Positions 9,139-33,608 of a stretch of DNA of 33,742 bases are shown in pieces. The stretch covers positions 1-33,742 of the forward strand of contig CANQLF010000001.1 of assembly GCA_947624635.1 (NCBI GenBank), read 5' to 3'. The notes under the pieces are model-generated. The model saw only the letters and a program-made list of their open reading frames with translations, was not told where the DNA came from and searched no databases. The translations under genes and the position numbers were made by a program. Each line of letters opens with the position of its first letter. Position 1 is the stretch's first letter. The stretch comes from an uncultured Bacilli bacterium. Lineage in GTDB: Bacteria > Bacillota_I > Bacilli_A > RF39 > UBA660.

Positions 9139-9870
9139 CTATTCAGATTCACCCTTATTGTCATTAGCTTCATTTTTTCCTTCTTGTATACCTTTACTAA
9201 TTGATTTTGCTATGTCACCAATTGCCGGTGCAACTTCTTTACCAATTGTTGCCCCTACTTTACCAACGGTTGGTGCCATTTTTTCCATACCTTCTTGTGC
9301 TACAGGCATAACTTGTTGAACTCCAAATGCAAGCATTTCTCTACGTTTAGAGAATAAATAAACTCCTAATGATATAATACCTGATACTAGTATTATAAAT
9401 CCTCCAAAGACATATAATGGAACGTATTTTGCCGTTGAAATTTTATTATATAATACAGGATAAACAGTATTTGATAAATTAAATTCTTCCATCTCTAAAT
9501 CTGACAATTGAGAGTTTAATGCACTAGATTCTCTTTCACATTTATTAACATTTGCAAACCAATTACTTCCATGTTCAATTGAGTCACACTCTGTTTCCTT
9601 TTCATCTATTTTTGCATTTAATTCTTCTTTTTCATTTTTTATTTCTTCTAATCTTTGTTGATCTTGTACTTTCTTTTGTTCTACTTGTTTATATATTTTA
9701 TTATAATTTTCTTCATTTGTTTTTTTAGCATTATTTGATAATACTAATCCTGTAGTTATTAATCCTGTTCCTATTAATATTCCAGCTATTAATATAATTA
9801 AAGCTATTTTTTTAATTTTCTTTTTTGATTTTTCATAGTTTTCTTCTGTTAAAAATTCTTTCTTTTCCAT
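9139..9870 (-). CDS. Membrane protein with two TM helices flanking a coiled-coil ectodomain; function unknown
   Basis: 243 aa. TM helices at IALIILIAGILIGTGLITTGLVL and YVPLYVFGGFIILVSGIISLGVYLF. E/K-rich heptad-like segment between them. AAGGAGTGA RBS. Starts 16 nt after the stop of the upstream gene, so likely the same operon. Confidence 0.5.
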   Translation of the reverse strand: MEKKEFLTEENYEKSKKKIKKIALIILIAGILIGTGLITTGLVLSNNAKKTNEENYNKIYKQVEQKKVQDQQRLEEIKNEKEELNAKIDEKETECDSIEHGSNWFANVNKCERESSALNSQLSDLEMEEFNLSNTVYPVLYNKISTAKYVPLYVFGGFIILVSGIISLGVYLFSKRREMLAFGVQQVMPVAQEGMEKMAPTVGKVGATIGKEVAPAIGDIAKSISKGIQEGKNEANDNKGESE

Positions 9871-9885
9871 ACTATTTTCACTCCT

Positions 9886-11472
9886 TTATTCATTATTCAT
9901 ATTTGAATTTATATTATCATTATTACTAGTAGTAATATTATCTATATTTGGTGTTGGACTATCATCTATTATATCTATTATTTCTTCATTTGATTCTTCA
10001 ATTGGCATTTCATTATTTTCTATATTGTTTTGTTGTTGAAAGTCAATGTTATCTTGTGTATTCAATTCTTTTGGTGGAGTATTATCAATATTATTTTTAT
10101 TGTTTTTATTTTTCTTTTTAATAAAATAGAATACTATTAAACCTATAATTATTAATAATTCTATAATAGTAAATACTACAAAGATATTAAAGCTATTATC
10201 TTTTTTATCATTATTAGTTTTAATATTAGTTTTAATGTTTGATTCTACATTTTTTATATTTGACATAGTTATTAAATAATTATTGCCATTTGTAGTAGAA
10301 AATTCTATATATCCATCTTTAACTATTAAATTATCTTCAATTTTTACTAATTTATTATTAACTTTATCATAGTAATATATATTTAGTTTATCACCATTAT
10401 TATATTTATCACCAACATATAATTTTATTTTTGTTCCTTCTGGTAAATTATTATTAATTATTATTTGTTTTCCATCTGCATAATTTGATAATTCGTTTAT
10501 TTCTTTTGATGGTTTTTTAATATCAATATTTAAGTTTAATTCTTTAGAATTATTTATTTTAGAACCATCTAATAAAATACTATAAAGTAATTTATTGTTA
10601 TTATCATAGTAATCAAAATTAATTTTTTTACCACTCTTTTTAATTTTATCTATATCGTTTGATGATAATTTAGTATTAGCATCTACTTTTATATTAGCTT
10701 CTTTAATATTAGAATCTTTTAATATATTATCTAAATCTTCTATAGTATAACTATCTTTTCTAGTTATTTTAATATTTATTTTGTTTTGTGTACCTGATTG
10801 TGAAGTAACAATTATTTCAATATTATTTTCCCCTACTTTTAATTCATGTGTTCCTGTACCTGTTATTTTTGCATTAATATCTTCTGCTACTGCTTTAATA
10901 TTAACTTTATCTGTACTATATGGAACTGTTAATGTGTAATTATTTTTATCAACTTTGTTTAAGTTGAAACCTTCGACTTCTAAACTAGTAAGATCTACAT
11001 TTGATGATTTATTATTTGTATTAGATGATGGTTTATTATTGTTTGTATTTGAGTTATTATTTGTACCACCTGTACTTGGTGATGGATTAGGTTTTGGTGT
11101 AGATTTTCCTACTACATTAACATTTATTGTATATGTTTTTCCTGTTAAATCTTCATCATCATAACTTGTAACGTCAGTTGTATATACTTTTATAGAAGTC
11201 GACCCAACACTATTTGCTTTAACAGTTATAGTTACACTATTCATATCTAAAAATTCACTAGTACTAGAGATACTTGCAATGCTAGAATTATTTGTTGAAA
11301 TATCAACTCTACCTGCACAATTATCTGCATTTATGGTAAATGTGGCACTACTACCTTTAGTTATAGTTAAGTTTGTTGTAGAAACACTTATACTACCTCT
11401 TGCAAGTACATTTATCGGTATCATTAGTAATATTAGTGCAAGGGTTAGAAATATATTTTTTAACTTCTTCAT
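9886..11472 (-). CDS. Surface protein: signal peptide, Ig-like beta-sandwich domain, N/S/T-rich linker, cadherin-like beta-sandwich domain, C-terminal TM anchor
   Basis: Start moved to the ATG at 11472 (MKKLKNIFLTLALILLMIPINVLA), preceded by AGGAGA. The segment LTSLEVEGFNLNKVDKNNYTLTVPYSTDKVNIKAVAEDINAKITGTGTHELKVGENNIEIIVTSQSGTQNKINIKITR fits the bacterial cadherin-like repeat pattern. TM helix FNIFVVFTIIELLIIIGLIVFYFI lies near the C-terminus. Confidence 0.6.
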   Translation of the reverse strand: MKKLKNIFLTLALILLMIPINVLARGSISVSTTNLTITKGSSATFTINADNCAGRVDISTNNSSIASISSTSEFLDMNSVTITVKANSVGSTSIKVYTTDVTSYDDEDLTGKTYTINVNVVGKSTPKPNPSPSTGGTNNNSNTNNNKPSSNTNNKSSNVDLTSLEVEGFNLNKVDKNNYTLTVPYSTDKVNIKAVAEDINAKITGTGTHELKVGENNIEIIVTSQSGTQNKINIKITRKDSYTIEDLDNILKDSNIKEANIKVDANTKLSSNDIDKIKKSGKKINFDYYDNNNKLLYSILLDGSKINNSKELNLNIDIKKPSKEINELSNYADGKQIIINNNLPEGTKIKLYVGDKYNNGDKLNIYYYDKVNNKLVKIEDNLIVKDGYIEFSTTNGNNYLITMSNIKNVESNIKTNIKTNNDKKDNSFNIFVVFTIIELLIIIGLIVFYFIKKKNKNNKNNIDNTPPKELNTQDNIDFQQQNNIENNEMPIEESNEEIIDIIDDSPTPNIDNITTSNNDNINSNMNNE

Positions 11473-11495
11473 AAAATTTTCTCCTATCATACTTA

Positions 11496-14400
11496 CTATT
11501 CAATAAACTCTGTTCCCATAATGTGTTTTCTAATCTTGATGTAATCTTTTGAAGTAATAACTTCATCTAGGTTAATATCTGCTGCATAGAATAATGTTTT
11601 ATCAGTTATTACTTCAGATCCCATTATATGCTTTCTAATTTTAATATAGTCTTTTGAAGTTATTTCACCATCCCCATTTATATCTCCTGCTAAAGCAATT
11701 TTATAATCAAAATCTTTTGTATTATTTATTTTAATTCTTACTATATCTTTTGTCTTAACATCATCTGAAGTAGTTAATTCATTACTTGATTCGTAATGAG
11801 AATATGCTATTTCATTAGCAAAATAATTAAATCTTTCAATTATTTTAGAAAAACTTTTATTTTTTGTTATTACTACATTATCTCTAATTGATAGTGGAGG
11901 ATTAACACCTCTTATACCATATATTTTTACTTTATTACTTCCCATTAAAGTTTCATAACCTTCAGCAGTTACCTTGTATTTAACTGTGTATTCACCAACA
12001 AACATGAACGAAGGTACCTTACTTCCATAGTCTGTATCATCAACGGAATACTCTATTTCATAATCATCTATATCCAATTTAATATCAAGTGAATGTAATT
12101 GACCATCATATATACCCTCATAATCTTTTGTATAATTAAATATTATATTGGTATTATATACATTAACTGATAATTCAATATTTTCAATCACTTCATAATT
12201 TTCAGTATCTTCTGGTGTATATTTTGCTAGAAATGTTTGTTCACCTACTTCTGTTATTGTTTGATTTTTATCCATCCACTCAAATCCTGTTGGTAAATCT
12301 ATATCACTTAATTTCATGTTTACTTTTGCTTTTAGATTATTTGGCTTTTCATAATTAGGTGTTGCTTTTGATACATTTACATTTACATTTTTTTCATAAG
12401 TTTCATTATATATATCATTAATTATTACTGTGTAATATGAATGATTAAATCTAAAACTATCTAAATTATTTATATATTTAATTGTATATCCATCTGTTAT
12501 AGTTTTACTATTAGTTTCTTCTTTATATTCGTTATCTTTATTATATCCTTTTTCAAAATTTAAAGATATTGAACTTATGTCACTGCTAGTAACTTTTTCA
12601 AATGCTTTATATGATGTTTTATTTGCATTAATAGTTATTTCTGGATTTAAGGTTTCATATTTTATTTTATTATTTTTTGCATATTCTTTTGCATAAGCAT
12701 CACTGTATGTATAAATTGTTAAATCTATTTTTTCTTGTTGTGTATTTTTATCAAAAGAATTTGTAGCTATTGAATCGACTGATCTTGGAATATAAACTTC
12801 TTTTAATTTTTTACAAGCATAAAAAGCATGATCTTTAATTTCTTTAACTTTTTTTGGAATAATAATACTATTTATACCACTATTTACAAATGCCATTGCA
12901 TTTATTTGTTCAATTGATTCTGGTAAATTAACCGTTTCAAGATTTTCACAATTAAAGAAGGTATTGGATTCAATTGTTTTAACACCATCTGGAATATCAA
13001 TACTCTTAATATTAGTTCCAGAAAAAGCATTACTGCCTATATATGTAATACTTTCAGGTATATTTATATGTTCAAGTTTAGAACATCCAGAGAAAGCACC
13101 ATTTTCTATTCTAGTAATTTTTTCTGCTAATTTAATGTTATCCAAGAATTCACAACCTGAAAAAGCTTGAGAACCAATTTTAGAAATCACACCATTAAAT
13201 GTCGTAAGTTTGTAATTATACATAAAAGCATTTTCATTAATTTCTATTTCTGGACTGTTTATTATTACTTTTTCTAATGTAGATTTTGAATCTTGTGATA
13301 ATATTTTTTCAGCACGAAAAACATTTTTTCCAATTTTAGATATTGTTTTTGGTAAATTTATAATTTTAAAGTATTCAAAATCTTTTGAATTTTTAAACAT
13401 ATCTGAACTACTACTTGATGTTGAATCTGCTAATGATACTACATTATATTCGTTAATTGTTTCAGGAAAATATAAACTAAGATATTTTTGATTATTATCT
13501 TTGTAATGTGTTAATTCTATATTAGATGAATCAAGAATATTATATTCCCAGCCTACATCTTCAAATCTCGGATTTGTTATATTAAAGGCTTCCGTTAAAC
13601 CATCATATTTAATTGTTACAGTTTGTTGGGTATTACTATTTGGATTATATCCTTCTATTTCTATATTCTCTAATTTACCCAAAGTCCTTGTTATTTTTCT
13701 ACCGTCATTATAGTGAATTAAAATTTCTGTTGGAAATAAATTATTTACACTATAATAATTATAGTCTGTTGTTTTAATGTTAGTTACTTCTATTTTAGTT
13801 ATTTCAGTTGCACTTTTAGAAAATATACCATATTCATCACATTCATCTTCTTGACTATTATCACAAAATTTAGCATTATTAAATGAGATTAATCCATATC
13901 CATAGTATTCATCCCATCCTTCATCACCTAAATCTTGAGCATATATTTTTAATAATTCGATTGCATCATCAATTGTAAGGTCTTTATTAAGTGATTTTAA
14001 AATTGCTACTGAACTTACTGCATGTGGTGTAGCCATAGAAGTTCCACTCATTTTTCCATTAATACTTTCTATATCTGTTCCAGGGGCAGTAAAAGTTATA
14101 TATCTTCCATAATTTGAAAAATCAGATTTATTTAAAGACGAATCTACTGAAGAAATAGCAATTGTAGTATCAAGAGCTGCAGGATATGATTTATCAGATG
14201 TGCTTTCATTACCTGCTGCAGCAACACTTATTATATTTTGTTCTTTTGCTGCTTCTATTGCACTATCAAGTGCTAAATCGTTTCTTTCTGAGCCAAAGCT
14301 CATGTTAATAACATCTGCTTTTTTGTCTTGAACTATATAATTTACTGCTGCTACTATTTTAACTGTATCAATAGATTTATCATCTGATACTTTAACTGGT

Positions 14401-15056
14401 AAAATTTTAACGTTATTTGGTGTACTTTCAGCAATTGTTCCAGCTATATGTGTACCATGTCCATAATTATCAAACATATCACTATCTGAAGTTAGTATAT
14501 TATAAGTTTTTTCTATTTTTCCTGAATAATTTTCATTAAATAAATCCATATCACAACCTGTATCTATTATTGCTACTGTAATATCATTTAATTTTTGTGA
14601 ATTAGCAAATTCAATTGCATCATCTAGTCCCATTTTTTCTACTCCCCAAGAATTATAATTTCCATCTACATTTGAAAAAGTATAAGTTATATTTTCTTGT
14701 ACAATAATAGAAGGATCATTTTTTAATTTATTAAATGCTTTATCTTTATTTTTCAAATTGTCATATTGTAGGATATATTGATTATTAGGAGCATCAATTA
14801 TTTTTTTAGCTCCGTATGTTTCTTTTAATTTTTCTTCAGATATTACAATTAATATATTGTCTTTTTCATCTTCTTTTATTTCTGATACTTCTTTAAAATA
14901 ATTATTCATAAATTCTTTTGGTAATTTTGAAATATTTATTAGGTCATCAGTTAGTTTATTATTATTTAATAATTTATGTTTAAAATAAAAGCAACAAGTT
15001 ATTGAACCAATTAAAAAGATTACTAAAAAGGCACTGATATACAATCTTTTTTTCAT
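11496..15056 (-). CDS. Large secreted subtilisin-family (S8) serine protease with BspA-type leucine-rich repeats, Ig-like modules and a C-terminal dockerin
   Basis: 1186 aa. S8 catalytic triad contexts: AIIDTGCD (Asp), HGTHIAGTIA (His), GTSMATPHAV (Ser). LRR_5-like repeats, e.g. FSGCSKLEHINIPESITYIGSNAFSG. Duplicated Ca-binding dockerin segments GDINGDGEITSKDYIKIRKHIMG and ADINLDEVITSKDYIKIRKHIMG at the C-terminus (about nt 11499-11714). Confidence 0.85.
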   Translation of the reverse strand: MKKRLYISAFLVIFLIGSITCCFYFKHKLLNNNKLTDDLINISKLPKEFMNNYFKEVSEIKEDEKDNILIVISEEKLKETYGAKKIIDAPNNQYILQYDNLKNKDKAFNKLKNDPSIIVQENITYTFSNVDGNYNSWGVEKMGLDDAIEFANSQKLNDITVAIIDTGCDMDLFNENYSGKIEKTYNILTSDSDMFDNYGHGTHIAGTIAESTPNNVKILPVKVSDDKSIDTVKIVAAVNYIVQDKKADVINMSFGSERNDLALDSAIEAAKEQNIISVAAAGNESTSDKSYPAALDTTIAISSVDSSLNKSDFSNYGRYITFTAPGTDIESINGKMSGTSMATPHAVSSVAILKSLNKDLTIDDAIELLKIYAQDLGDEGWDEYYGYGLISFNNAKFCDNSQEDECDEYGIFSKSATEITKIEVTNIKTTDYNYYSVNNLFPTEILIHYNDGRKITRTLGKLENIEIEGYNPNSNTQQTVTIKYDGLTEAFNITNPRFEDVGWEYNILDSSNIELTHYKDNNQKYLSLYFPETINEYNVVSLADSTSSSSSDMFKNSKDFEYFKIINLPKTISKIGKNVFRAEKILSQDSKSTLEKVIINSPEIEINENAFMYNYKLTTFNGVISKIGSQAFSGCEFLDNIKLAEKITRIENGAFSGCSKLEHINIPESITYIGSNAFSGTNIKSIDIPDGVKTIESNTFFNCENLETVNLPESIEQINAMAFVNSGINSIIIPKKVKEIKDHAFYACKKLKEVYIPRSVDSIATNSFDKNTQQEKIDLTIYTYSDAYAKEYAKNNKIKYETLNPEITINANKTSYKAFEKVTSSDISSISLNFEKGYNKDNEYKEETNSKTITDGYTIKYINNLDSFRFNHSYYTVIINDIYNETYEKNVNVNVSKATPNYEKPNNLKAKVNMKLSDIDLPTGFEWMDKNQTITEVGEQTFLAKYTPEDTENYEVIENIELSVNVYNTNIIFNYTKDYEGIYDGQLHSLDIKLDIDDYEIEYSVDDTDYGSKVPSFMFVGEYTVKYKVTAEGYETLMGSNKVKIYGIRGVNPPLSIRDNVVITKNKSFSKIIERFNYFANEIAYSHYESSNELTTSDDVKTKDIVRIKINNTKDFDYKIALAGDINGDGEITSKDYIKIRKHIMGSEVITDKTLFYAADINLDEVITSKDYIKIRKHIMGTEFIE

Positions 15057-15165: not shown

Positions 15166-16572
15166 CTATTTTTGTATATTTATTACTATTTGATGAGTAG
15201 TACCCATGTCTTGTTCATCAACATTAATTATATATCCATTGTTTTGTAAATTAACTACTGTATTTCTTATAACTGCAACTGCACCTGTTATATCTTGTTG
15301 AGCTATAAATGATGTAGGTTGAGCCTCAGTCATTGGAGGCATACCAGTAAGGCCTGCTTGATTAGGTGAACCAAATGCAGGTGGTTCTTGCATGAAATTG
15401 TTATTTGGTTCTATTTGATGTTCATTTATATTTGGATTACCAAATTGATTTGGATCAAATGTAGCATTATTAGGGTTAAATGTATTACCCATATTCATAT
15501 TTGCTGCTTCATCATCTAAGTTGTTAAAGAACCTTCCTCCTATTGATTCATTATTTTGTTGTGCCATACCATTTTGCATTCCCATTTGATTTGGATCTTG
15601 CATTATTGCTGGATTATTTGGAACATCTTGATTCATTGGAGTTCCACCAAATACTGGAGGCTCACTTGGTTGTGATGGTTGTGGTATTGGTTGATTATTT
15701 ATATCCAAAGGATTTGGAACATCACTAATAGGCATTTGATTTAAATTATTTTGGTTATTTATATTTGAATTTTCTTGATTAATGTTATTATCAATTGGTG
15801 GTGCATCAACATTATTTTGATTCATATCTTGTTCACCTTCAATACTTATAGGAGTTGGTTCTACTTCAATATTTGGTGTATCAACATTATCTGTACTTGC
15901 TTCAGGTGAAGCTGGAGTATCTATTTGAAAATCTATTATTTCACTATCTTCTTCTGTATCTTGTGGTGTATCATTTCCTAACATGTTTTTAATTTCATTA
16001 TCAGTTTCTCTAACAGTAAGTCTATTTTCAATTATTTTATTTAACATTTCATTTTGAGCAGTTTTATCTTTTAATTTTAATAAACTTCTTGCATGTCTTT
16101 CTGATATTTTAGTATCGAGTAATGCTTGTTGAGCTTCATCACTTAAATTTAATAATCTTAATTTGTTAGATACTGTTGATTGAGTCTTACCTACTCTTTT
16201 AGCTAATTCTTCTTGATTCATTTGTCCTAATTCTAATATTTTTTCATAAGATTTTGCTTCTTCTATTGCAGTTAAATCTTTTCTTTGTATGTTTTCAACT
16301 AAAGCTATTTCTGCACTATCTGCATCATTTATTTCCATAACAATTGATGGAACAGTTTTAAGACCTATTATATTTGCAGCTTTAAATCTTCTTTCACCTG
16401 CAATTATTTCATACTTATCTCCTAGTTTTCTTAAAACTAATGGTTGAATTAGGCCATGTTGTCTAATTGAATCAGCTAATTCGTTTAATGATTCTTCATC
16501 AAAGTTTTTTCTAGGTTGAAATCTGTTAGGAATAATATCATTAACACTTATTTGTTCAACTTGATTGTTCAT
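15166..16572 (-). CDS. noc: ParB/Noc-family CTP-switch DNA-binding protein with Noc-type HTH and a long Q/N/P-rich low-complexity insertion
   Basis: 468 aa. ParB box IIPNRFQPR and GERRFKAA arginine patch. HTH region GKTQSTVSNKLRLLNL...ISERHARSL resembles B. subtilis Noc rather than Spo0J. Sits directly downstream of rsmG, as noc does in Bacillus. AAGGAGGGG RBS before the ATG at 16572. An in-frame TGA lies 14 codons upstream with no start codon between, so the N-terminus cannot be longer. Confidence 0.75.
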   Translation of the reverse strand: MNNQVEQISVNDIIPNRFQPRKNFDEESLNELADSIRQHGLIQPLVLRKLGDKYEIIAGERRFKAANIIGLKTVPSIVMEINDADSAEIALVENIQRKDLTAIEEAKSYEKILELGQMNQEELAKRVGKTQSTVSNKLRLLNLSDEAQQALLDTKISERHARSLLKLKDKTAQNEMLNKIIENRLTVRETDNEIKNMLGNDTPQDTEEDSEIIDFQIDTPASPEASTDNVDTPNIEVEPTPISIEGEQDMNQNNVDAPPIDNNINQENSNINNQNNLNQMPISDVPNPLDINNQPIPQPSQPSEPPVFGGTPMNQDVPNNPAIMQDPNQMGMQNGMAQQNNESIGGRFFNNLDDEAANMNMGNTFNPNNATFDPNQFGNPNINEHQIEPNNNFMQEPPAFGSPNQAGLTGMPPMTEAQPTSFIAQQDITGAVAVIRNTVVNLQNNGYIINVDEQDMGTTHQIVINIQK

Positions 16573-16620: not shown

Positions 16621-17319
16621 TTACAATGGATTTTTTTTAATTTGTTCAAATTTTCTTGGATACTTTTCATCTGTTTTACTTATTTTTTTAAATTTTATTA
16701 GTGTTCTCTTACTATTTTCTATTGGAAGAGTAAATTCTTTTATACTATCTAGTTTACAGTTTAACTTTTTACAAGCACTATCTATATTGTTTAATTCATC
16801 ATTAATATTTGCTTTTAGTGCAATGAAGTATCCATTAATTTTAGTTAGTGGCATTGCAAGTTCTATAAGTGTATTTGTTTTTGCAACTGCACGTGCTACT
16901 ACCAAATCGTATTTTTCTCGTTTCTTAAAATCTTCTATTCTTGTATGTATTGCTTCTATATCTTTTAAGTTTAATTTAGCTATTACATCATTTAGAAAAT
17001 TAATTCTTTTTTGTAATGAATCAATTAATGTTACTTTAATATTTGGAAAAAGTATTTTAATAGGAATTCCAGGAAAACCTGCACCACTACCCATATCGCA
17101 TAATGTATTTATGTTTTCTAAATTAATTGATAGATTTAGGGTTAGTGAATCATAAAAATGTTTTAAGTAAACATCTTTTTCTTCTGTTATTCCTGTTAAG
17201 TTCATTACTTTGTTATATTCTATTAACATTTTATAATATGTATCAAACATATTTAATTGTTCATCTGTAATTTGTATGTTTAAATCTTTTAAATAAGTAA
17301 TAAATTCATTCTTATTCAT
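16621..17319 (-). CDS. rsmG: 16S rRNA (guanine527-N7)-methyltransferase
   Basis: 232 aa. SAM-binding motif DMGSGAGFPGIPIKI. Conserved position after mnmG, with a 1-nt TAATG overlap with the mnmG stop. Confidence 0.9.
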   Translation of the reverse strand: MNKNEFITYLKDLNIQITDEQLNMFDTYYKMLIEYNKVMNLTGITEEKDVYLKHFYDSLTLNLSINLENINTLCDMGSGAGFPGIPIKILFPNIKVTLIDSLQKRINFLNDVIAKLNLKDIEAIHTRIEDFKKREKYDLVVARAVAKTNTLIELAMPLTKINGYFIALKANINDELNNIDSACKKLNCKLDSIKEFTLPIENSKRTLIKFKKISKTDEKYPRKFEQIKKNPL

Positions 17320-19175
17320 TAGTAACCACCTTTTTTTAAATACACAGATAATATGGATATATCTGATGGATTAACTCCACTTATACGTGATGCTTGTCCA
17401 ATTGATTTTGGTCTTACTTCTATTAATTTTTGTCTTGCTTCTGATGCAAGATTTGGTATTTTTTTATAATCTATATCTTCAGGTATTTTTTTATTTTCTA
17501 ATTTCAACATTTTTTCTGCTTCTCTTATAGCTTTTTTTATGTATCCATCATATTTAATATTTATTTCTACTTGTTCTTTTATTTCATCTGTATAATCTAT
17601 ATTTTTAAAATGAGTTAATTTATCTATTGTTATTTCTGGTCTTTTTAATAGTTCATAAAGTGTTATACCATCTTTTATTTCAGCACTATCTAATTCTTTT
17701 AAATATTCATTTACTTCTTTAGTTGGTGTAACTTTTATACTTTGTAGTTCTTCTTCTAATTTCTTAATTGATTCTATTTTTTCATCTAGTTTTTTCTTTC
17801 TTTCTTCACTAATTAATCCTACTTCATAACCATAATTACTTAATCTTAAATCTGCATTATCATGTCTTAATAATAATCTAAATTCTGCTCTTGAAGTTAA
17901 TAATCTATACGGTTCTTTTGTACCTTTTGTAACTAAATCGTCTATTAACACACCAATATAAGCTTCATTTCTTTTAAGTATTAATGGTTCTTTACCTTCT
18001 AGTTTTAGCGAAGCATTTATTCCTGCAATTAAACCTTGAGCTGCTGCTTCTTCATAACCACTTGTTCCGTTTATTTGTCCTGCAGTAAATAAATTTTCTA
18101 CTAATTTTGTTTCAAGTGAAGCATTTATTTGTAATGGATTAATCGCATCATATTCTATTGCATAAGCATATTTTAATATTTTAACGTTTTCTAATCCTTC
18201 AATACTATGTACCATATTCTCTTGTACATCATAAGGCATACTAGTAGAAAATCCTTGTAAGTATATATCATCATAATATAAGCTTTCTGGCTCTAAAAAT
18301 AATTGATGTCTATTTTTATCACTAAATCTTACTACTTTATCTTCTATTGATGGGCAGTATCTTGGACCAATTCCTTTTGCATATCCACCATACATACTTG
18401 ATCTATTTAAATTATCCATTATTATTTTGTGAGTTTTTTCATTTGTATAAACTAAATAACATGGTTCTTGTTTATCTATATCGTAAGTTGGATTTGTTTC
18501 ATAACTAAAACTCCATCTTACTTTATCTCCATCTTCTCTTCTAGTTTTAGAGTAATCTATAGTTGCTCTATCAAGTCTTGGTGGTGTTCCTGTTTTAAGT
18601 CTTTGAATATCGAATCCTAATTCTTTTAAATCATCACTTAAAAACATAGATGGTCTTTGATTATTAGGACCTTTTCTTGTTCTAGTATCCCCTACTAAAA
18701 TATCAGCTTTTAAATATGTTCCTGTTGTAAGTATTACTGTATCTGCATATATTTTTTCTCCACCTGCAAGAACTATACCTTTTATTTTTTTATCTTCAAC
18801 TATTAAGTGTTCAACCATATCTTCTAATAAGGTTAAGTTTTCAGTAGATTTTAAAGTTTCTTGCATATTTTTTGGATAAGTTATTTTATCTGCTTGGGCA
18901 CGTAAGCTTCTTACAGCTGGTCCTTTAGATGAATTAAGCATTTTGATTTGTATATGACTTTTATCTGCATTTTTACCCATTTCTCCACCTAAGGCATCTA
19001 TTTCTCTTACAACTATACCTTTCGCACTTCCACCTATTGATGGATTACATGGCATATCTGCAATATTATTTATATTTCCTGTTATAAGTAGAGTTTTATG
19101 ACCAATTCGTGCACATGCTAATGATGCTTCACAACCAGCATGTCCACCACCTACTACAATTACTTCGTATTTCAT
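17319..19175 (-). CDS. mnmG: tRNA uridine 5-carboxymethylaminomethyl modification enzyme MnmG (GidA)
   Basis: Start moved to the ATG at 19175 ([20 protein letters not shown]-binding GxGxxG), preceded by AGGAAGTGG. Full-length GidA-like sequence. Confidence 0.93.
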
Positions 19176-19252
19176 TTGTAACCACTTCCTAAAAAATACT
19201 TCGTACATATTATACTACATATTTTTCCATTTTTATTTATTTTTTTAAATAT

Positions 19253-19285
19253 AAAAATATCTAGAAATAATAATAAATCTAGATA
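19253..19285 (-). terminator. Probable terminator/attenuator between mnmE and mnmG
   Basis: 8-bp stem TATCTAGA (19258-19265) / TCTAGATA (19278-19285) with a 12-nt loop. A5 at 19253-19257 gives the U-run on the - strand. Confidence 0.45.
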
Positions 19286-19305
19286 ATTTTTATAAATATT
19301 TAATA

Positions 19306-20661
19306 CTATTTTCCCAAGCAAAACTTACTAAATAATTCATCTAATAATTCATCATGATATGTTTCACCAGTAATCTCTCCAAGTAAATCCCATATTGCTT
19401 TTAAGTCTATTGCAATTATATCTGTTGGGATATCTTCTTTAATTGCTTTATTTATATCATCTATTTTATTTAAACATTTTTTTAATATAGAAATACTTCT
19501 AGCATTACTTAAATAAGTTAAATCTTTTTCTTCGATTTTACCTAAGTTAAATATTTCCACTATTTTATTTTTAAGTTCATTTAAACCATTACTATTTATA
19601 GTATTAGTAAATATTATTTCATCTTTATTGAATCTAGATATATCAAGTTTGTTTTCTAAATCATTCTTATTAATAACTATTATTCTATTTTTATCTTTAG
19701 TTTCATCTAAAAGTTCTAAATCATTATCAGTTAGTTCTTCATTATTATTAAGTACTATCATTGCAAGATCAACATCATTTAAAATTTTCTTACTCTTCTC
19801 TACTCCAATTTTTTCTACAATATTTTCAGTATTTCTAATACCTGCAGTATCTATTAAATTTATCATAATACCATTAAACAAGAAACTACCTTCTACTATA
19901 TCCCTTGTTGTACCTTCTATATTTGTAACTATTGCTTTATCTTCATTTAATAGTCCATTTAATATACTACTTTTACCAACGTTTGGTCTACCGAATATAC
20001 CAACTGTTATACCCTCTTTTATCATTTTTGTATTTTCGCTTTTTTCTAATATTTCATTTAATTTAGATTTAATATATTTAATTTTTTCTTTTAATAATTC
20101 ATTAGTATATTCAATTGCATCTTCATATTCAGGATAGTCTATGTTTACTTCAATATTAGCTAAAACTTCTATTATACTTTGTCTTAAATCTTTTATTATT
20201 CCTGATATTTTTCCTTCAATACCATTTATTGCCATCTTTCTTGTTAGTTCTGTTTTTGAATTAATTATATCCATTATAGATTCTGCTTCAACTAAGTCTA
20301 TTCTACCATTTAAAAATGCTCTTTTAGTAAATTCTCCCGGTTCTGCAAGCCTACAACCATTATTTAAAAGTAATTCTAATATTTTATTAGTTGTAGACAT
20401 TCCCCCATGTGAATTTATTTCTACTACATCTTCTTTAGTAAATGTTTTAGGTGATTTCATTATAGAAATTAAAACTTCATCTATAATTTCGCCTTTATCT
20501 ATAATATATCCATAATGTATTGTGTGAGTTTCTACTTTTGTTAGGTCTTTACCTTTAAATATCTTATTAACAATATTTATTGCATCATCTCCACTTACTC
20601 TAATTATAGATATTGCGCCTACTCCTAAAGATGTTGAAATTGCAGCTATTGTATTATTCAT
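19306..20661 (-). CDS. mnmE: tRNA modification GTPase MnmE (TrmE/ThdF)
   Basis: 451 aa. G-domain motifs GRPNVGKSS, DTAGIR, NKND. C-terminal C-x-G-K motif (FCLGK). Confidence 0.93.
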   Translation of the reverse strand: MNNTIAAISTSLGVGAISIIRVSGDDAINIVNKIFKGKDLTKVETHTIHYGYIIDKGEIIDEVLISIMKSPKTFTKEDVVEINSHGGMSTTNKILELLLNNGCRLAEPGEFTKRAFLNGRIDLVEAESIMDIINSKTELTRKMAINGIEGKISGIIKDLRQSIIEVLANIEVNIDYPEYEDAIEYTNELLKEKIKYIKSKLNEILEKSENTKMIKEGITVGIFGRPNVGKSSILNGLLNEDKAIVTNIEGTTRDIVEGSFLFNGIMINLIDTAGIRNTENIVEKIGVEKSKKILNDVDLAMIVLNNNEELTDNDLELLDETKDKNRIIVINKNDLENKLDISRFNKDEIIFTNTINSNGLNELKNKIVEIFNLGKIEEKDLTYLSNARSISILKKCLNKIDDINKAIKEDIPTDIIAIDLKAIWDLLGEITGETYHDELLDELFSKFCLGK

Positions 20662-22793: not shown

Positions 22794-23120
22794 CTATTCT
22801 AATGTTTTGAGTAAATTTAATAATTGTTGTTCCATTTCTTTGAAATTACAATCTAATATTTCTCTTCTTACTATTATAATATAATCTTTGTTATTTTTAA
22901 ATAGATTTTTGTTTTTATCTATAATATTTTTTAATTGTCTTTTTATTTTATTTCTAGTTACTGCATTTCCTATTCTTTTTCCAACGGATAATCCAAATCT
23001 TGCTATATTTAAATTATTATCATTATAATATATAGAATAAAATTTATTATATATTCTTTTTTTTGTTTCAAGTATTTTTTTAAAATCTTGGTTTTTTTTA
23101 ACGATTTCATTTTTTTTCAT
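22794..23120 (-). CDS. rnpA: Ribonuclease P protein component
   Basis: 108 aa, basic. Motif RFGLSVGKRIGNAVTRNKIKRQLKN. Directly downstream of rpmH. Confidence 0.9.
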   Translation of the reverse strand: MKKNEIVKKNQDFKKILETKKRIYNKFYSIYYNDNNLNIARFGLSVGKRIGNAVTRNKIKRQLKNIIDKNKNLFKNNKDYIIIVRREILDCNFKEMEQQLLNLLKTLE

Positions 23121-23150
23121 GGAATAACACCTTCTTACAATATTTATAGT

Positions 23151-23173
23151 AAAAAACCACTGATGATCAGTGG
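23151..23173 (-). terminator. Hairpin plus U6 terminator/attenuator between rpmH and rnpA
   Basis: CCACTGAT/ATCAGTGG inverted repeat (23157-23173). A6 at 23151-23156 on the + strand gives U6 on the - strand RNA. Confidence 0.65.
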
Positions 23174-23179
23174 CATGTA

Positions 23180-23302
23180 TTACTTACTAAGTCTTTTACG
23201 ACCTTTTCTTCTTCTTTTTGATATAATACCAGATTTAACACGTGAGAAAAATCCATGTTTCTTTTGTTTTTTTCTGTTATTTGGTTGATATGTTCTTTTC
23301 AT
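23180..23302 (-). CDS. rpmH: 50S ribosomal protein L34
   Basis: Not in the ORF track (too short). Hand translation of the - strand gives [40 protein letters not shown] (40 aa) with a GGAGGTG RBS upstream. Classic rpmH-rnpA arrangement divergent from dnaA. Confidence 0.9.
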
Positions 23303-23349
23303 TTTTGCATACACCTCCATTACTAAAAAGTTTTTCGAACGCATTTATA

Positions 23350-23377
23350 ATTATAAGGAAATATAATATTTTGTCAA
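23350..23377 (-). promoter_or_regulatory. rpmH promoter
   Basis: On the - strand: TTGACA (23372-23377), 16 nt, TATAAT (23350-23355). Confidence 0.6.
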
Positions 23378-23493
23378 TAGATTATATTCCTTTTTTTTAG
23401 TTTTTAAAACATTATTAAGTTTAATTTTACAAATTATTTAAAAATAAAAATATCATTTATAATATTAATTCTTCAACAAAATTGTTGAAAAAA

Positions 23494-23509
23494 TATTTCC
23501 CGGGAAATA
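23494..23509. promoter_or_regulatory. Noc-binding-site (NBS)-type palindrome 1
   Basis: TATTTCCCGGGAAATA, a perfect 16-bp palindrome (extends to 24 bp, 23490-23513). The core equals the B. subtilis NBS consensus ATTTCCCGGGAAAT. Confidence 0.7.
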
Positions 23510-23539
23510 TTTTATTTCCCGGGAAATATTTTATTTCCC
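23495..23539. repeat. 19-bp tandem direct repeat, 2.4 copies (ATTTCCCGGGAAATATTTT)
   Basis: Identical units at 23495-23513 and 23514-23532, plus a partial unit at 23533-23539. Confidence 0.9.
23513..23528. promoter_or_regulatory. Noc-binding-site (NBS)-type palindrome 2
   Basis: Second perfect TATTTCCCGGGAAATA, with its centre 19 bp from the first. A third half-site TATTTCCC follows at 23532-23539. Confidence 0.7.
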
Positions 23540-23823
23540 AAATCCACAGGTATCTGTGGAAAACTATACTATATTTTTATAGTTTTTATAGAGTTTTCCA
23601 CAGTTTCAACAGCTATGTTGATAAATTTTACCACAAGTGTGTTTAATTTATCAACAAGAATGTGTATAATTTAATATTTATATTATAAAATATTAAATTT
23701 TGCTGTGGAAAAGTCTGTGAATATTAAATTTTCTTTAATTTTTTTCATATTTTTGTTTTCTTTTCAACAGTTTTAGTTTAAAATATTAATTAGATTGGAA
23801 TACTTTATTGGAGGTGATTGGTT

Positions 23824-25185
23824 ATGAACACGGAAGTAATATGGCAAAACTTTTTACAAAAAATAAAAGAACAGATTACTTCCTTAGCATTCGATACCTG
23901 GTTTAAAGATACTAAACTGATAGAATTAAAAGATGGAAAAGCAAAAATTGTTGTTCCTATGCATGTGCATAAAAAGCATCTAATTGAAAATTATACAGAT
24001 ATGATACAGAACACATTAAATATTATTACTGGAACTAATTTTGATTTAGAATTTATTTTAGAAGAAGAATTAAATGATGAAAACGATGTCGACATAGATG
24101 TGGATATGATAGGAGTTCCAACGGTTAAGAGTAAAGTCGATACTAACCTTAATCCAAACTATGTATTTGAAAATTTTATAGTAGGAGAGAGTAATAGATT
24201 TGCTCATGCGGCAGCTTTATCTGTAGCTGAAAATCCTGGTAAGATGTACAATCCACTATTTATATATGGAAAAAGTGGTTTAGGAAAAACCCATCTAATG
24301 CATGCAATAGGTAATTATATTACAAGTAATTCATCTAAAAATGTATTATATGTTACAAGTGATCAATTTATTGAAGATTTTGTTGGTATTAATAAAAAAG
24401 ATAAAAAAGGAACTAACTTTGATTATGTTGATTATTTTAAAAATAAATATAGGAACATAGATGTACTTATTATAGATGACATACAATTCTTAGGAAGTGC
24501 GACGCAAACACAACAGGAATTTTTCCATACATTTAATAAATTATATGACGATAATAAGCAAATAATTATATCGTCAGATAGATCACCTGATGATTTAAAA
24601 ATACTTGAAGATAGACTAAGAACTAGGTTTAGCTGGGGATTATCAGTTAATATATTTCCACCTGATTTTGAACTTAGAAAAAATATATTAATAAAGAAAA
24701 TAACAGGACAGTCAATGGGTAATGATGTACCAGATGATGTGATAGAATATATTGCTAATAATTGCCAATCTGATGTAAGACAACTTGAGGGGGCAGTAAC
24801 TAGACTTTTTGCTTATGCAACTATGATGAATGGTAGTGATATAACCTTGGAACTTGCAGTAGATGCCTTAAAAGATTACTTACATAAGTCTATTGGTGTA
24901 AAAAATAGTGTTCAAAGAATACAAAGAGTAGTTGCTGATTATTATCAAATATCAGTAGATGATTTAAAAAGTAAAAAACGTCATGTTTCAATTGCTTATC
25001 CAAGACAGATTGCGATGTATTTAACTAGAACTTTAACAGATGAATCATTTCCTAAAATAGGTACTGAATTTGGTGGAAGAGATCATTCAACTGTAATACA
25101 CTCAGTTGAAAAAATAAAAGAAGAGATGAAGAATAATAAACAATTAAAAAATTTAATAACAACATTAAAAGAGCAGATTAAATAA
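23824..25185 (+). CDS. dnaA: Chromosomal replication initiator protein DnaA
   Basis: Walker A GKSGLGKTHL, Walker B LIIDDIQF, DnaA signature/HTH (IAMYLTRTLTDESFPKIGTEFGGRDHSTVIHS). Start set to the ATG at 23824, which is 9 nt after GGAGG (23810-23814). The ORF-track TTG at 23818 is too close to the RBS. Confidence 0.95.
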   Translation: MNTEVIWQNFLQKIKEQITSLAFDTWFKDTKLIELKDGKAKIVVPMHVHKKHLIENYTDMIQNTLNIITGTNFDLEFILEEELNDENDVDIDVDMIGVPTVKSKVDTNLNPNYVFENFIVGESNRFAHAAALSVAENPGKMYNPLFIYGKSGLGKTHLMHAIGNYITSNSSKNVLYVTSDQFIEDFVGINKKDKKGTNFDYVDYFKNKYRNIDVLIIDDIQFLGSATQTQQEFFHTFNKLYDDNKQIIISSDRSPDDLKILEDRLRTRFSWGLSVNIFPPDFELRKNILIKKITGQSMGNDVPDDVIEYIANNCQSDVRQLEGAVTRLFAYATMMNGSDITLELAVDALKDYLHKSIGVKNSVQRIQRVVADYYQISVDDLKSKKRHVSIAYPRQIAMYLTRTLTDESFPKIGTEFGGRDHSTVIHSVEKIKEEMKNNKQLKNLITTLKEQIK

Positions 25186-25191
25186 CAGTCT

Positions 25192-25290
25192 TGTGGATAA
25201 GAAGAGAATTTTCGACAACTTTTGCACAACTAAAAATATAAAAATAGTTCATTTTTAGGTTATTTTTTTAAGTTATCCACAGTTTCCACA
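25192..25290. promoter_or_regulatory. oriC part II: DnaA boxes in the dnaA-dnaN spacer
   Basis: Perfect TTATCCACA at 25192-25200 (- strand, as TGTGGATAA) and at 25273-25281 (+). The latter is directly followed by GTTTCCACA at 25282-25290. Confidence 0.8.
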
Positions 25291-25340
25291 GTAATAATAA
25301 AAATATTAATAAAAGAAAGAAAAAAGAAATATTAAAAATT
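25291..25340. other. Candidate DNA-unwinding element (AT-only stretch with TAA trinucleotide repeats)
   Basis: GTAATAATAAAAATATTAATAAAAGAAAGAAAAAAGAAATATTAAAAATT immediately follows the tandem DnaA boxes. It is almost free of G/C and begins with TAATAATAA. Confidence 0.45.
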
Positions 25341-25355
25341 AGGGAGGTTATTTTT

Positions 25356-26610: not shown

Positions 26611-27051
26611 ATGAATTGCTACGAAATAAATGAGGAAACATTAGCTATATTACCTTATGGAGATACACAAAGTAAAATAATTGAAAAATATAAGGAATTT
26701 ATAGTTAATAAAACTCCTTATGAAATTATAACTTACAGTTGTTTATATTTTGGCAGTTCCTATGAAGGAAGAATTTCAGCAACTAAGTACCTTCTTGGAA
26801 TATCATATAAATCACCAATTGTAATAGAAGAATCTCGCAATTTAATTTTCTTTCCAACAAACTCGCCAAAATTACAAGACTGTAGCTGGATTTCTTTGAA
26901 AAGTATAGTAGACTATAAGAGAAATAATAGTAAATCAATGATATTATTTGATAATAACGTTAGATTACCACTTGATATTTCTTATGGTTCTCTAGAAAAT
27001 CAAATTATGAGAGCTTCTAGGTTAGACTCTATGTTAAGAAACAACAGATAA
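26611..27051 (+). CDS. comK: ComK-family protein (competence transcription factor-like), short form
   Basis: 146 aa. Aligns by eye with B. subtilis and S. aureus ComK landmarks: AILPYGD..SKIIEK, SCLYFGSSYEGR, GISYKSPIVIE, IFFPTNSP, CSWISL, ISYGSLENQ. GGGGGTGA RBS. Confidence 0.65.
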   Translation: MNCYEINEETLAILPYGDTQSKIIEKYKEFIVNKTPYEIITYSCLYFGSSYEGRISATKYLLGISYKSPIVIEESRNLIFFPTNSPKLQDCSWISLKSIVDYKRNNSKSMILFDNNVRLPLDISYGSLENQIMRASRLDSMLRNNR

Positions 27052-32702: not shown

Positions 32703-32704
32703 AA

Positions 32705-32720
32705 TGTTTCACGTGAAACA
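32705..32720. promoter_or_regulatory. parS site 1 (ParB/Spo0J centromere-like site)
   Basis: TGTTTCACGTGAAACA, a 16/16 fit to the Firmicute parS consensus TGTTNCACGTGAAACA. Perfect palindrome, 18 bp with flanking A/T. Confidence 0.85.
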
Positions 32721-32810
32721 TAGGTAGAAATTCTAATAAAAAAATAAAATTTAACAAAAAAATATAATTAAATATTGAAATAAATACTATTGATTATAAA
32801 AATAAAACAA

Positions 32811-32826
32811 TGTTTCACGTGAAACA
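32811..32826. promoter_or_regulatory. parS site 2
   Basis: Identical TGTTTCACGTGAAACA, 106 bp from site 1. Confidence 0.85.
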
Positions 32827-32917
32827 TAGGATTGAAATACTAATAAAATAATTGAGTTTAATCAAAACTATAATTAAATGTTAAAATAAATAATATTAAT
32901 TATAAAAAAAAAGACAA

Positions 32918-32933
32918 TGTTTCACGTGAAACA
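32918..32933. promoter_or_regulatory. parS site 3
   Basis: Identical TGTTTCACGTGAAACA, 107 bp from site 2. Confidence 0.85.
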
Positions 32934-33024
32934 TTAGATAGAAATGCAAATAAAATAATAAAACTTAATTAAAAATATAATTAAATGTTAAAATAAATAA
33001 TATTAATTATGAAAACAAAAATAA

Positions 33025-33040
33025 TGTTTCACGTGAAACA
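33025..33040. promoter_or_regulatory. parS site 4
   Basis: Identical TGTTTCACGTGAAACA, 107 bp from site 3 and 14 bp upstream of the ffs -35 element. Confidence 0.85.
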
Positions 33041-33053
33041 TTAATTATATTTC

Positions 33054-33083: not shown

Positions 33084-33087
33084 ATTA

Positions 33088-33167
33088 GTGCACAACAAAT
33101 ATGTTGGAACCAGGTCAGAATTGGAAGATAGCAGCCTTAACAACCTCTGTTTGTGTGTGCTTTTTTT
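33088..33167 (+). ncRNA. ffs: Signal recognition particle RNA, short (4.5S-like) form
   Basis: Domain IV signature CCAGGTCAGAATTGGAAGATAGCAGCC, including a GGAA tetraloop closed by AUU/GAU and the conserved AGCAGCC strand. The 5' GTGCACAACAAA pairs with the 3' TTTGTGTGTGC and is followed by T7. Ends uncertain by a few nt. Confidence 0.75.
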
Positions 33168-33179
33168 ATGGTGATGTTT

Positions 33180-33608
33180 ATGAATAATAAATTTTTGAAT
33201 GAAATAATTAAATTAGCAGAAAAAGCTGAGAAAAATAATTGCGTTCCAGTAGGTGCAATTGTAGTTAAAGATAATAAGATAATTAGTAAAGGCTATAATA
33301 AGAAAGAAAAAACTAACAATCCTATGGATCATGCAGAAATAATTGCAATTAAAAAAGCTTCTAAGAAAATTAAAAATTGGAGGATGCCAGATTGTGAAAT
33401 TTATGTAACGATGAAACCATGTGCTATGTGTCAAAAAGTGATTGCTGAAAGTAGAATAATGAAAGTACACTACTTAATTGATAATAAAAAACAATCAAGC
33501 ACAACAAATAATATTTTAAATAAAATAAATATGCAAAAAGAAAACGAACGTATATATGAAATAAATTATACTAAAATAATAACAAATTTTTTTAAAAAAA
33601 GACGATAA
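33180..33608 (+). CDS. tadA: tRNA-specific adenosine deaminase (CDA-fold zinc deaminase)
   Basis: Zinc-binding motifs DHAEIIAIKKA (HAE) and PCAMCQKVI (PCxxC). Start chosen at the ATG at 33180 (MNNKFLNEI), 4 nt after GGTGAT. The ORF-track start at 33153 lies inside the SRP RNA. ATGs at 33168 and 33174 are also possible. Confidence 0.8.
   Translation: MNNKFLNEIIKLAEKAEKNNCVPVGAIVVKDNKIISKGYNKKEKTNNPMDHAEIIAIKKASKKIKNWRMPDCEIYVTMKPCAMCQKVIAESRIMKVHYLIDNKKQSSTTNNILNKINMQKENERIYEINYTKIITNFFKKRR

Follow-up and report, generated by a model that had tools for sequence, protein, structure and literature searches.

The window, by which we mean the whole stretch of 33,742 nucleotides from an uncultured Bacilli bacterium that was analysed here, contains a replication origin of the bipartite Firmicute type. 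The genes rpmH, dnaA and dnaN lie in this order, DnaA-box clusters flank dnaA, the cumulative GC skew reaches its minimum at about 23-24 kb, where the skew switches, and the genes diverge from the same point (Table 1). Within the rpmH-dnaA spacer there are two perfect copies of a 16-bp palindrome, TATTTCCCGGGAAATA, with their centres 19 bp apart, followed by a half-site, and the first copy is embedded in a larger perfect palindrome of 24 bp (AAAATATTTCCCGGGAAATATTTT, 23490-23513). The original prediction had described these elements as Noc-binding sites (NBSs), and upon rereading the region 22900-24400 all of its coordinates for the two palindromes, the half-site and the 24-bp palindrome hold. 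The pair lies on the rpmH side, at the outer limit of the upstream DnaA-box cluster and not within it, ~150 bp upstream of where the dnaA promoter is likely to be.

A DnaA-box-like word TGTTGAAAA, said to overlap the 24-bp palindrome, is indeed present at 23483-23491, but has two mismatches to the DnaA box and is not conserved in the relatives. The word is part of an inverted repeat, TTCAACAA-aa-TTGTTGAA (23471-23488), situated directly upstream of the first NBS, and this repeat is probably incidental, judging from the sequence comparison. As functional DnaA boxes both were rejected, and since neither is found in any relative, they are given no weight. Downstream, a comK-family gene lies between dnaN and recF (26611-27051, plus strand), as it does in every relative examined (L088-L096).

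Table 1 Positions of the origin-associated features in the window.
Feature	Position	Strand	Remarks
Linker motif GGRFFNNLDDEAANMNMG of Noc (residues 345-362)	15487-15540	-	consensus [KR]FFxxLDDEAANMNM
noc orthologue, 468 aa	15166-16572	-	ParB_N and HTH_ParB domains, Q-K-N-R, GERR CTP motif, Noc-like C-terminal domain
rpmH (ribosomal protein L34)	23180-23302	-	orthologous 40-aa genes called in L088-L096
rpmH promoter	23350-23377	-	consensus sigma-70 (TTGACA-16-TATAAT), 117 bp from NBS copy 1
NBS copy 1, TATTTCCCGGGAAATA	23494-23509		perfect 16-bp palindrome, same as the NBS of the Noc co-crystal DNA GGATATTTCCCGGGAAATATCC (PMC7383237)
19-bp tandem repeat	23494-23539		2.4 copies, 100% matches (Tandem Repeats Finder)
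NBS copy 2, TATTTCCCGGGAAATA	23513-23528		perfect, aligns with the single NBS of relatives
NBS half-site TATTTCCC	23532-23539	+	abuts DnaA-box-like word AAATCCACA (23540-23548)
Inverted pair of DnaA-box-like words, AAATCCACA-N6-TGTGGAAAA	23540-23563		conserved in the subclade alignments
Upstream DnaA-box cluster of oriC	23555-23712		six boxes with at most one mismatch
dnaA	23824-25185	+	
dnaA-dnaN spacer	25186-25355		contains an AT-rich run as well as two perfect DnaA boxes; forms the second half of the bipartite oriC
parS array	32703-33041		perfect parS TGTTTCACGTGAAACA in four copies, on a tandem repeat with a 107-bp unit; flanked by gyrA and the SRP RNA

The palindromes and the noc gene

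The 22-bp duplex that was crystallised with the DNA-binding domain of B. subtilis Noc contains exactly the 16-mer found in the window (PMC7383237), and the published B. subtilis consensus, a 14-bp core ATTTCCCGGGAAAT (PMC3020112), is present in both copies, which bears out the proposed identity with the B. subtilis site. A perfect 16-mer would be expected 8e-6 times in the window and is observed twice. The two copies are also the only ones, as the original prediction had noted: no further NBS with up to two mismatches exists in the window, and a search for the 14-bp core with up to three mismatches gave no other good match there.

The Noc-type ParB paralogue expected about 7 kb away is encoded 6.9 kb from the pair, and several lines of evidence identify it as Noc-like. 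Its domains match PF02195 at 1.3e-34 and PF17762 at 5.5e-33, and its best PDB matches are Geobacillus Noc (206 bits) and B. subtilis Noc (186 bits), ahead of Spo0J (179 bits). The best NCBIfam match is likewise the Noc model TIGR04285 (nucleoid_noc), with a score of 291.7 bits that is below the 315-bit cut-off and still remains below it at 303.7 bits when a long linker is removed, even though the alignment then spans positions 1-255 of the 255-position model. Four positions switch the specificity of ParB (RTAG) to that of Noc (QKKR), these being Q158, K164, K169 and R186 of Noc (PMC7383237). The window protein reads Q-K-N-R, and thus has both specificity-switching residues, Q and R, and one permissive lysine, with an asparagine instead of lysine at the specificity position 184. 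The protein and its 120 closest homologues read QKNR, QKSR, QKAR and similar. The GERR motif is present in all 121 of these sequences, and the asparagine of the ENxQR motif is also found in the window protein. Judging by these residues, the window Noc is predicted to have NBS-type specificity, and the palindromes are very probably its loading sites.

The genomic position of the gene points in the same direction. The rsmG gene (16621-17319) precedes noc with a gap of 48 bp, and as noc directly follows rsmG it represents a positional noc orthologue. The canonical order rsmG-noc-soj-spo0J is kept in one relative (L094), while in the window soj-spo0J are not adjacent to noc. The place that they take in B. 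subtilis and L094 is here (9139-15056, minus strand) filled by three other genes. The first encodes a subtilase of 1186 aa that has BspA-type leucine-rich repeats and a dockerin domain, and genes for a 534-aa cadherin-like protein and for a 243-aa protein without a family follow. With other genes following noc, soj and spo0J must lie elsewhere in the genome, and relatives do encode separate Spo0J and Soj proteins.

At its N-terminus the protein departs from the Noc proteins described so far. An amphipathic membrane-targeting helix of about 10 residues is conserved in all Noc proteins examined and is required for function (PMC4331003), and this N-terminal helix and the helix alpha2 have been described as Noc-specific (PMC8429893). 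The window protein aligns to Noc only from residue 27-29 and does not have the N-terminal helix. The open reading frame already uses the most upstream start, so that no earlier start is possible, and in all 120 closest homologues only 14-18 residues precede the PNRFQPR motif; the whole clade therefore lacks both the membrane-targeting helix and alpha2. With the helix missing, the Bacillus paradigm, on which the original prediction had leaned, cannot simply be transferred to this protein. A second, canonical Noc may be encoded elsewhere in these genomes.

Another distinctive feature is a disordered linker of ~210 residues, rich in Q, N and P, which separates the DNA-binding domain from the Noc-like C-terminal domain, and the expansion of this linker accounts for the range of lengths among the 120 homologues (308-542 aa). 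Amid an otherwise unalignable linker sequence, one short motif is conserved in the window protein and its counterparts in L001, L088-L092 and L094. The motif loosely resembles the N-terminal SRFFGLGEKE of B. subtilis Noc, but has an acidic face, and no PDB match was found for it. The possibility that this RFF motif is a relocated membrane-targeting helix was rejected in view of the acidic polar face and the missing PDB match; from its sequence it reads better as a protein-binding peptide, which may recruit a partner. In one relative (L090, ~1600-2960) the linker-coding part of noc contains a run of N together with near-identical proline/glutamine-rich repeats, and it seems that short-read assemblies break at this repetitive linker.

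Noc-binding sites at related origins

About 10 kb on either side of dnaA or noc were compared in the relatives. The first of these, an uncultured Bacilli MAG (L001) with a DnaA protein 89% identical to that of the window, was found by scanning genome contigs with the Noc protein, and further relatives were taken via DnaA homologues, with the DnaA-centred loci L088-L096 compared. L001 has one NBS and a half-site at the same place as in the window. L088, L089, L090 and L091 (DnaA 92, 90, 87 and 85% identical, respectively) have a perfect NBS between -296 and -317 relative to the dnaA start, and L092 (82%) and L095/96 (77%) have one with a single mismatch, so that across the window and these eight relatives, all with DnaA at least 77% identical, the site stays within -296 to -330. 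Each of the eight keeps one NBS with at most one mismatch as well as the half-site. In a further relative, L093 (DnaA 78%), only degenerate remnants of the NBS are left, still beside the DnaA boxes though rpmH is 7.6 kb away. The half-site, as TATTTCCC or GGGAAATA, lies between the full NBS and the inverted DnaA-box pair in every subclade lineage, and in L089 it overlaps the DnaA box by 4 bp.

In the alignment the NBS and the DnaA boxes form one conserved block, and the flank on the rpmH side cannot be aligned. The first NBS of the window is an insertion relative to the relatives, which carry 1.4 copies of the 19-bp unit versus 2.4 in the window. The site itself is thus conserved in the eight close relatives, but the 19-bp tandem pair of the original prediction is found in the window only. 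The complete identity of the repeat copies and the lower copy number in the relatives suggest that the duplication is recent and specific to the window, and the second copy is most simply explained by a 19-bp slippage between the two TATTTCCC words of the NBS and the half-site.

Beyond the subclade the picture is different. The distant set comprises 81 loci, namely 80 metagenome loci with DnaA 59-68% identical plus L093 and L094, and in none of the 70 distant loci (DnaA <80%) with enough upstream sequence is there an NBS upstream of dnaA. The placement of the NBS inside oriC therefore stands for the subclade, where it is conserved at the edge of the DnaA-box cluster, but does not extend to these 70 loci, and strict juxtaposition with the oriC DnaA boxes is not generally required. 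Instead, the 34 distant loci whose sequence extends to +10 kb all have NBSs immediately behind gyrA, between one and seven per locus and at a distance of 9-11 kb from the DnaA-box cluster; parS is also found there in 31 of the 34. In the dereplicated loci 48 NBSs fall within the 52 kb at +8 to +11 kb, compared to five in 488 kb elsewhere, a density ~90 times that of the rest.

After gyrA, perfect NBSs usually form tandem arrays in which parS sites are interspersed. In L023 (~18900-19400) parS and NBS alternate every 119 bp, and in L074 (~18900-20450) a 45-bp module NBS-TTATCCACA-parS, in which TTATCCACA is a perfect DnaA box, is repeated five times. DnaA-box-like words also abut the NBS in L027 (~19780-20640), L030 and L045 (~18970-19235). 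A DnaA box lies within 30 bp of 10 of 64 NBSs against a background of 5.4%, although the counts come from few lineages with repeated units and are not independent; the enrichment of DnaA boxes beside the NBSs is real in those few lineages, and is taken as suggestive. In the window's subclade the position after gyrA holds parS only. The window itself has four parS sites there, starting at 32705, 32811, 32918 and 33025, which agree with the consensus TGTTNCACGTGAAACA and are origin-proximal. A small bacterial SRP RNA (Rfam RF00169, 54.3 bits; 33084-33169, plus strand) directly follows the array, and a tadA-like deaminase gene (33153-33608) comes after the RNA.

Isolated NBSs at other positions are few (-3.85 kb, -7 kb and +4.6 kb). 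The first of these positions is shared, with an extra perfect NBS ~3.85 kb upstream of dnaA in L027/L028 (-3888), L074 (-3842) and L094 (-3858), with the L094 copy located between mnmE and mnmG; a further NBS is present at -2486 in L027/L028. No NBS is present in the noc-centred loci L002-L007 of more distant relatives, some of which do not have dnaA close to rpmH, and these loci gave no information on oriC. In L004-L006 (~150-2770) rpmH is preceded divergently by soj-spo0J and not by dnaA, so the rpmH-dnaA linkage is not universal in the family.

Taken over this family of AT-rich, uncultured gut Bacilli, an origin-proximal NBS within ~10-11 kb of dnaA is universal, whereas its exact place is either after gyrA or at oriC. 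A universal proximity to the origin combined with a variable place suggests that selection acts on the loading of Noc in the vicinity of the origin. The relocation of the NBS from the array after gyrA to oriC is a single evolutionary event, and the either/or pattern thus carries little statistical weight.

Weighing the explanations for the origin-proximal sites

One alternative is that the palindromes have nothing to do with Noc, and are a restriction-modification target, an operator of some other regulator, or a hairpin or terminator. The CCCGGG centre is a target of the SmaI/XmaI type, and the 24-bp palindrome would be capable of hairpin extrusion. Both CCCGGG occurrences in the window, where 0.17 would be expected, are however inside the NBS copies, and in 1.42 Mb of sequence from the gut Bacilli family 86 of 90 (96%) are part of a full 16-bp NBS, while other GC-rich 6-bp palindromes occur 0-13 times in the same sequence. 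A dispersed restriction-modification target, an outcome that would have spoken against the original prediction, is therefore ruled out. All 16 bp are moreover conserved, and not merely the central six. A terminator or RNA element was likewise rejected, as no terminator-like site and no Rfam family overlapping the NBS was found and no transcript runs into it. Altogether a site unrelated to Noc is extremely improbable. That the NBSs are ordinary nucleoid-occlusion sites, scattered as in B. subtilis and of which one happens to sit here without an origin-specific role, agrees with the isolated NBSs elsewhere in the loci, but is hard to reconcile with a position that is kept while DnaA identity falls from 92 to 77% and the rpmH-side flank has diverged beyond alignment. 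It is also at odds with an NBS within ~11 kb of dnaA in all 34 distant loci reaching +10 kb and in all nine subclade lineages, and with the concentration of sites after gyrA, and the window Noc does not have the membrane helix that nucleoid occlusion needs (PMC4331003). We regard this explanation as quite unlikely.

A direct control of initiation, where Noc at the NBS pair would compete with DnaA sterically, act as a roadblock or boundary, or repress the dnaA promoter and so tune origin firing, deserves more serious consideration. In all nine subclade lineages the NBS and half-site are placed directly against the first conserved DnaA-box pair, to the point of overlap in L089, and in L093 the remnants have stayed with the DnaA boxes and not with rpmH; the modules of NBS and DnaA box in L074, L027, L030 and L045 are in line with such a role, as is the over-initiation of S. 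aureus without noc, where small Noc ChIP peaks flank dnaA (PMC5540599). Against this, the 34 distant relatives have their NBSs 9-11 kb away and none in the spacer, from which it follows that close contact with the oriC boxes is dispensable in most of the family. The adjacency to DnaA boxes outside the subclade is contributed by just three or four lineages in which the units are repeated, hence the lack of independence in the counts. The window NBS is outside the box cluster and upstream of the likely dnaA promoter, and for S. aureus an influence by way of dnaA expression was considered improbable by Pang et al. (PMC5540599). On balance direct control of initiation appears rather unlikely as the explanation of the sites.

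We consider it more likely than not that the NBSs serve as nucleation or loading sites from which a membrane-independent Noc clamp would coat the origin region, and so mark or organize the origin domain together with Spo0J-parS. By analogy with the CTP-clamp biochemistry of Noc and ParB (PMC8429893, PMC7053999), Noc dimers would attach to the NBSs and, dependent on CTP, close into clamps that travel along the kilobases next to the origin. With a pair of neighbouring NBSs the loading rate would double, spreading could be biased towards rpmH by DnaA that blocks the way on the boxes beside them, and the conserved linker motif may recruit a partner. The missing membrane-targeting helix means that the output is probably not classical membrane-tethered nucleoid occlusion, and marking or organization of the origin domain with Spo0J-parS is the more likely one. 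The identity of the site, its conservation and origin-proximal distribution and the features of the protein are observed here, and from them and the established biochemistry we infer the binding, spreading and physiological output of the window Noc. The asparagine at position 184 and the TIGR04285 score beneath the cut-off weigh somewhat against this loading-site reading, and NBSs may also be scattered elsewhere in the chromosome as in B. subtilis, the view taken here spanning flanks of ~10 kb.

Relation to known systems and implications

Noc and the NBSs reportedly constitute the nucleoid occlusion system of B. subtilis that was set out by Wu et al. in 2009. The system has been characterized further by Adams et al. 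2015 (PMC4331003), Jalal et al. 2020 (PMC7383237) and Jalal et al. 2021 (PMC8429893), and its resemblance to that of the window is considerable. The 16-bp site is identical, and the proteins are both ParB-family CTPases with Noc-type recognition residues (Q, K, R), GERR/N CTP motifs and a Noc-like C-terminal domain, encoded after rsmG. Unlike B. subtilis Noc, the window protein has neither the N-terminal amphipathic helix nor alpha2, and instead has the ~210-residue disordered linker with its conserved motif. In contrast to the scattered B. subtilis sites, the NBSs of the gut Bacilli concentrate at the origin, in oriC or in the parS arrays, within the flanks read.

The coupling of Noc to initiation, which had been proposed as undescribed, has a precedent in S. 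aureus, where replication initiation is under the control of Noc and dnaA is flanked by small Noc ChIP peaks, at the location of the DnaA boxes (Pang et al. 2017, PMC5540599); such a coupling is therefore not wholly new. In that organism Noc spreads over 8-10 kb, and occlusion of DnaA was raised as a formal possibility (PMC5540599). Both systems thus link a Noc protein to oriC. The S. aureus origin peaks are however minor with no consensus NBS reported in oriC, whereas the window and its subclade have one or two consensus NBSs in a conserved oriC module, and S. aureus Noc appears to be membrane-associated, in contrast to the helix-less window protein.

In several respects the arrangement is similar to that of ParB/Spo0J and parS. 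Both have CTP-clamp loading sites in a cluster no more than a few kb from oriC, NBSs and parS share tandem arrays in most relatives, and the window Noc, like ParB, is without a membrane helix. The recognition residues and the site are nevertheless of the NBS and not the parS type, and the window genome has separate perfect parS sites. The visible distribution of the NBSs is closer to that of parS than to the scattered B. subtilis pattern. In the literature we found no report of a consensus NBS built into oriC, of arrays combining NBS, parS and DnaA boxes, or of a helix-less Noc clade.

A further-reaching idea, which we put forward tentatively, is that Noc in the gut Bacilli might be an origin-dedicated, membrane-independent CTP clamp, and not a nucleoid-occlusion factor that tethers DNA to the membrane, with its sites in oriC or in composite DnaA-box/parS modules, where the linker peptide would recruit DnaA, Soj, or a division or replication factor, in a distinct and possibly ancestral mode of action. 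If true, origin firing or segregation would be coupled to a second ParB-type clamp, which could also explain the initiation phenotype of S. aureus noc mutants. The family provides a natural experiment on the influence of Noc over replication initiation and on the reach of the membrane-tethering model outside Bacillales, with a Noc that has lost the helix or never had it, loading sites always parked at the origin beside parS, and one subclade in which the site is inside a conserved DnaA-box module. It also suggests that ParB proteins of the Noc branch may have an older, or else an alternative, function directed at the origin.
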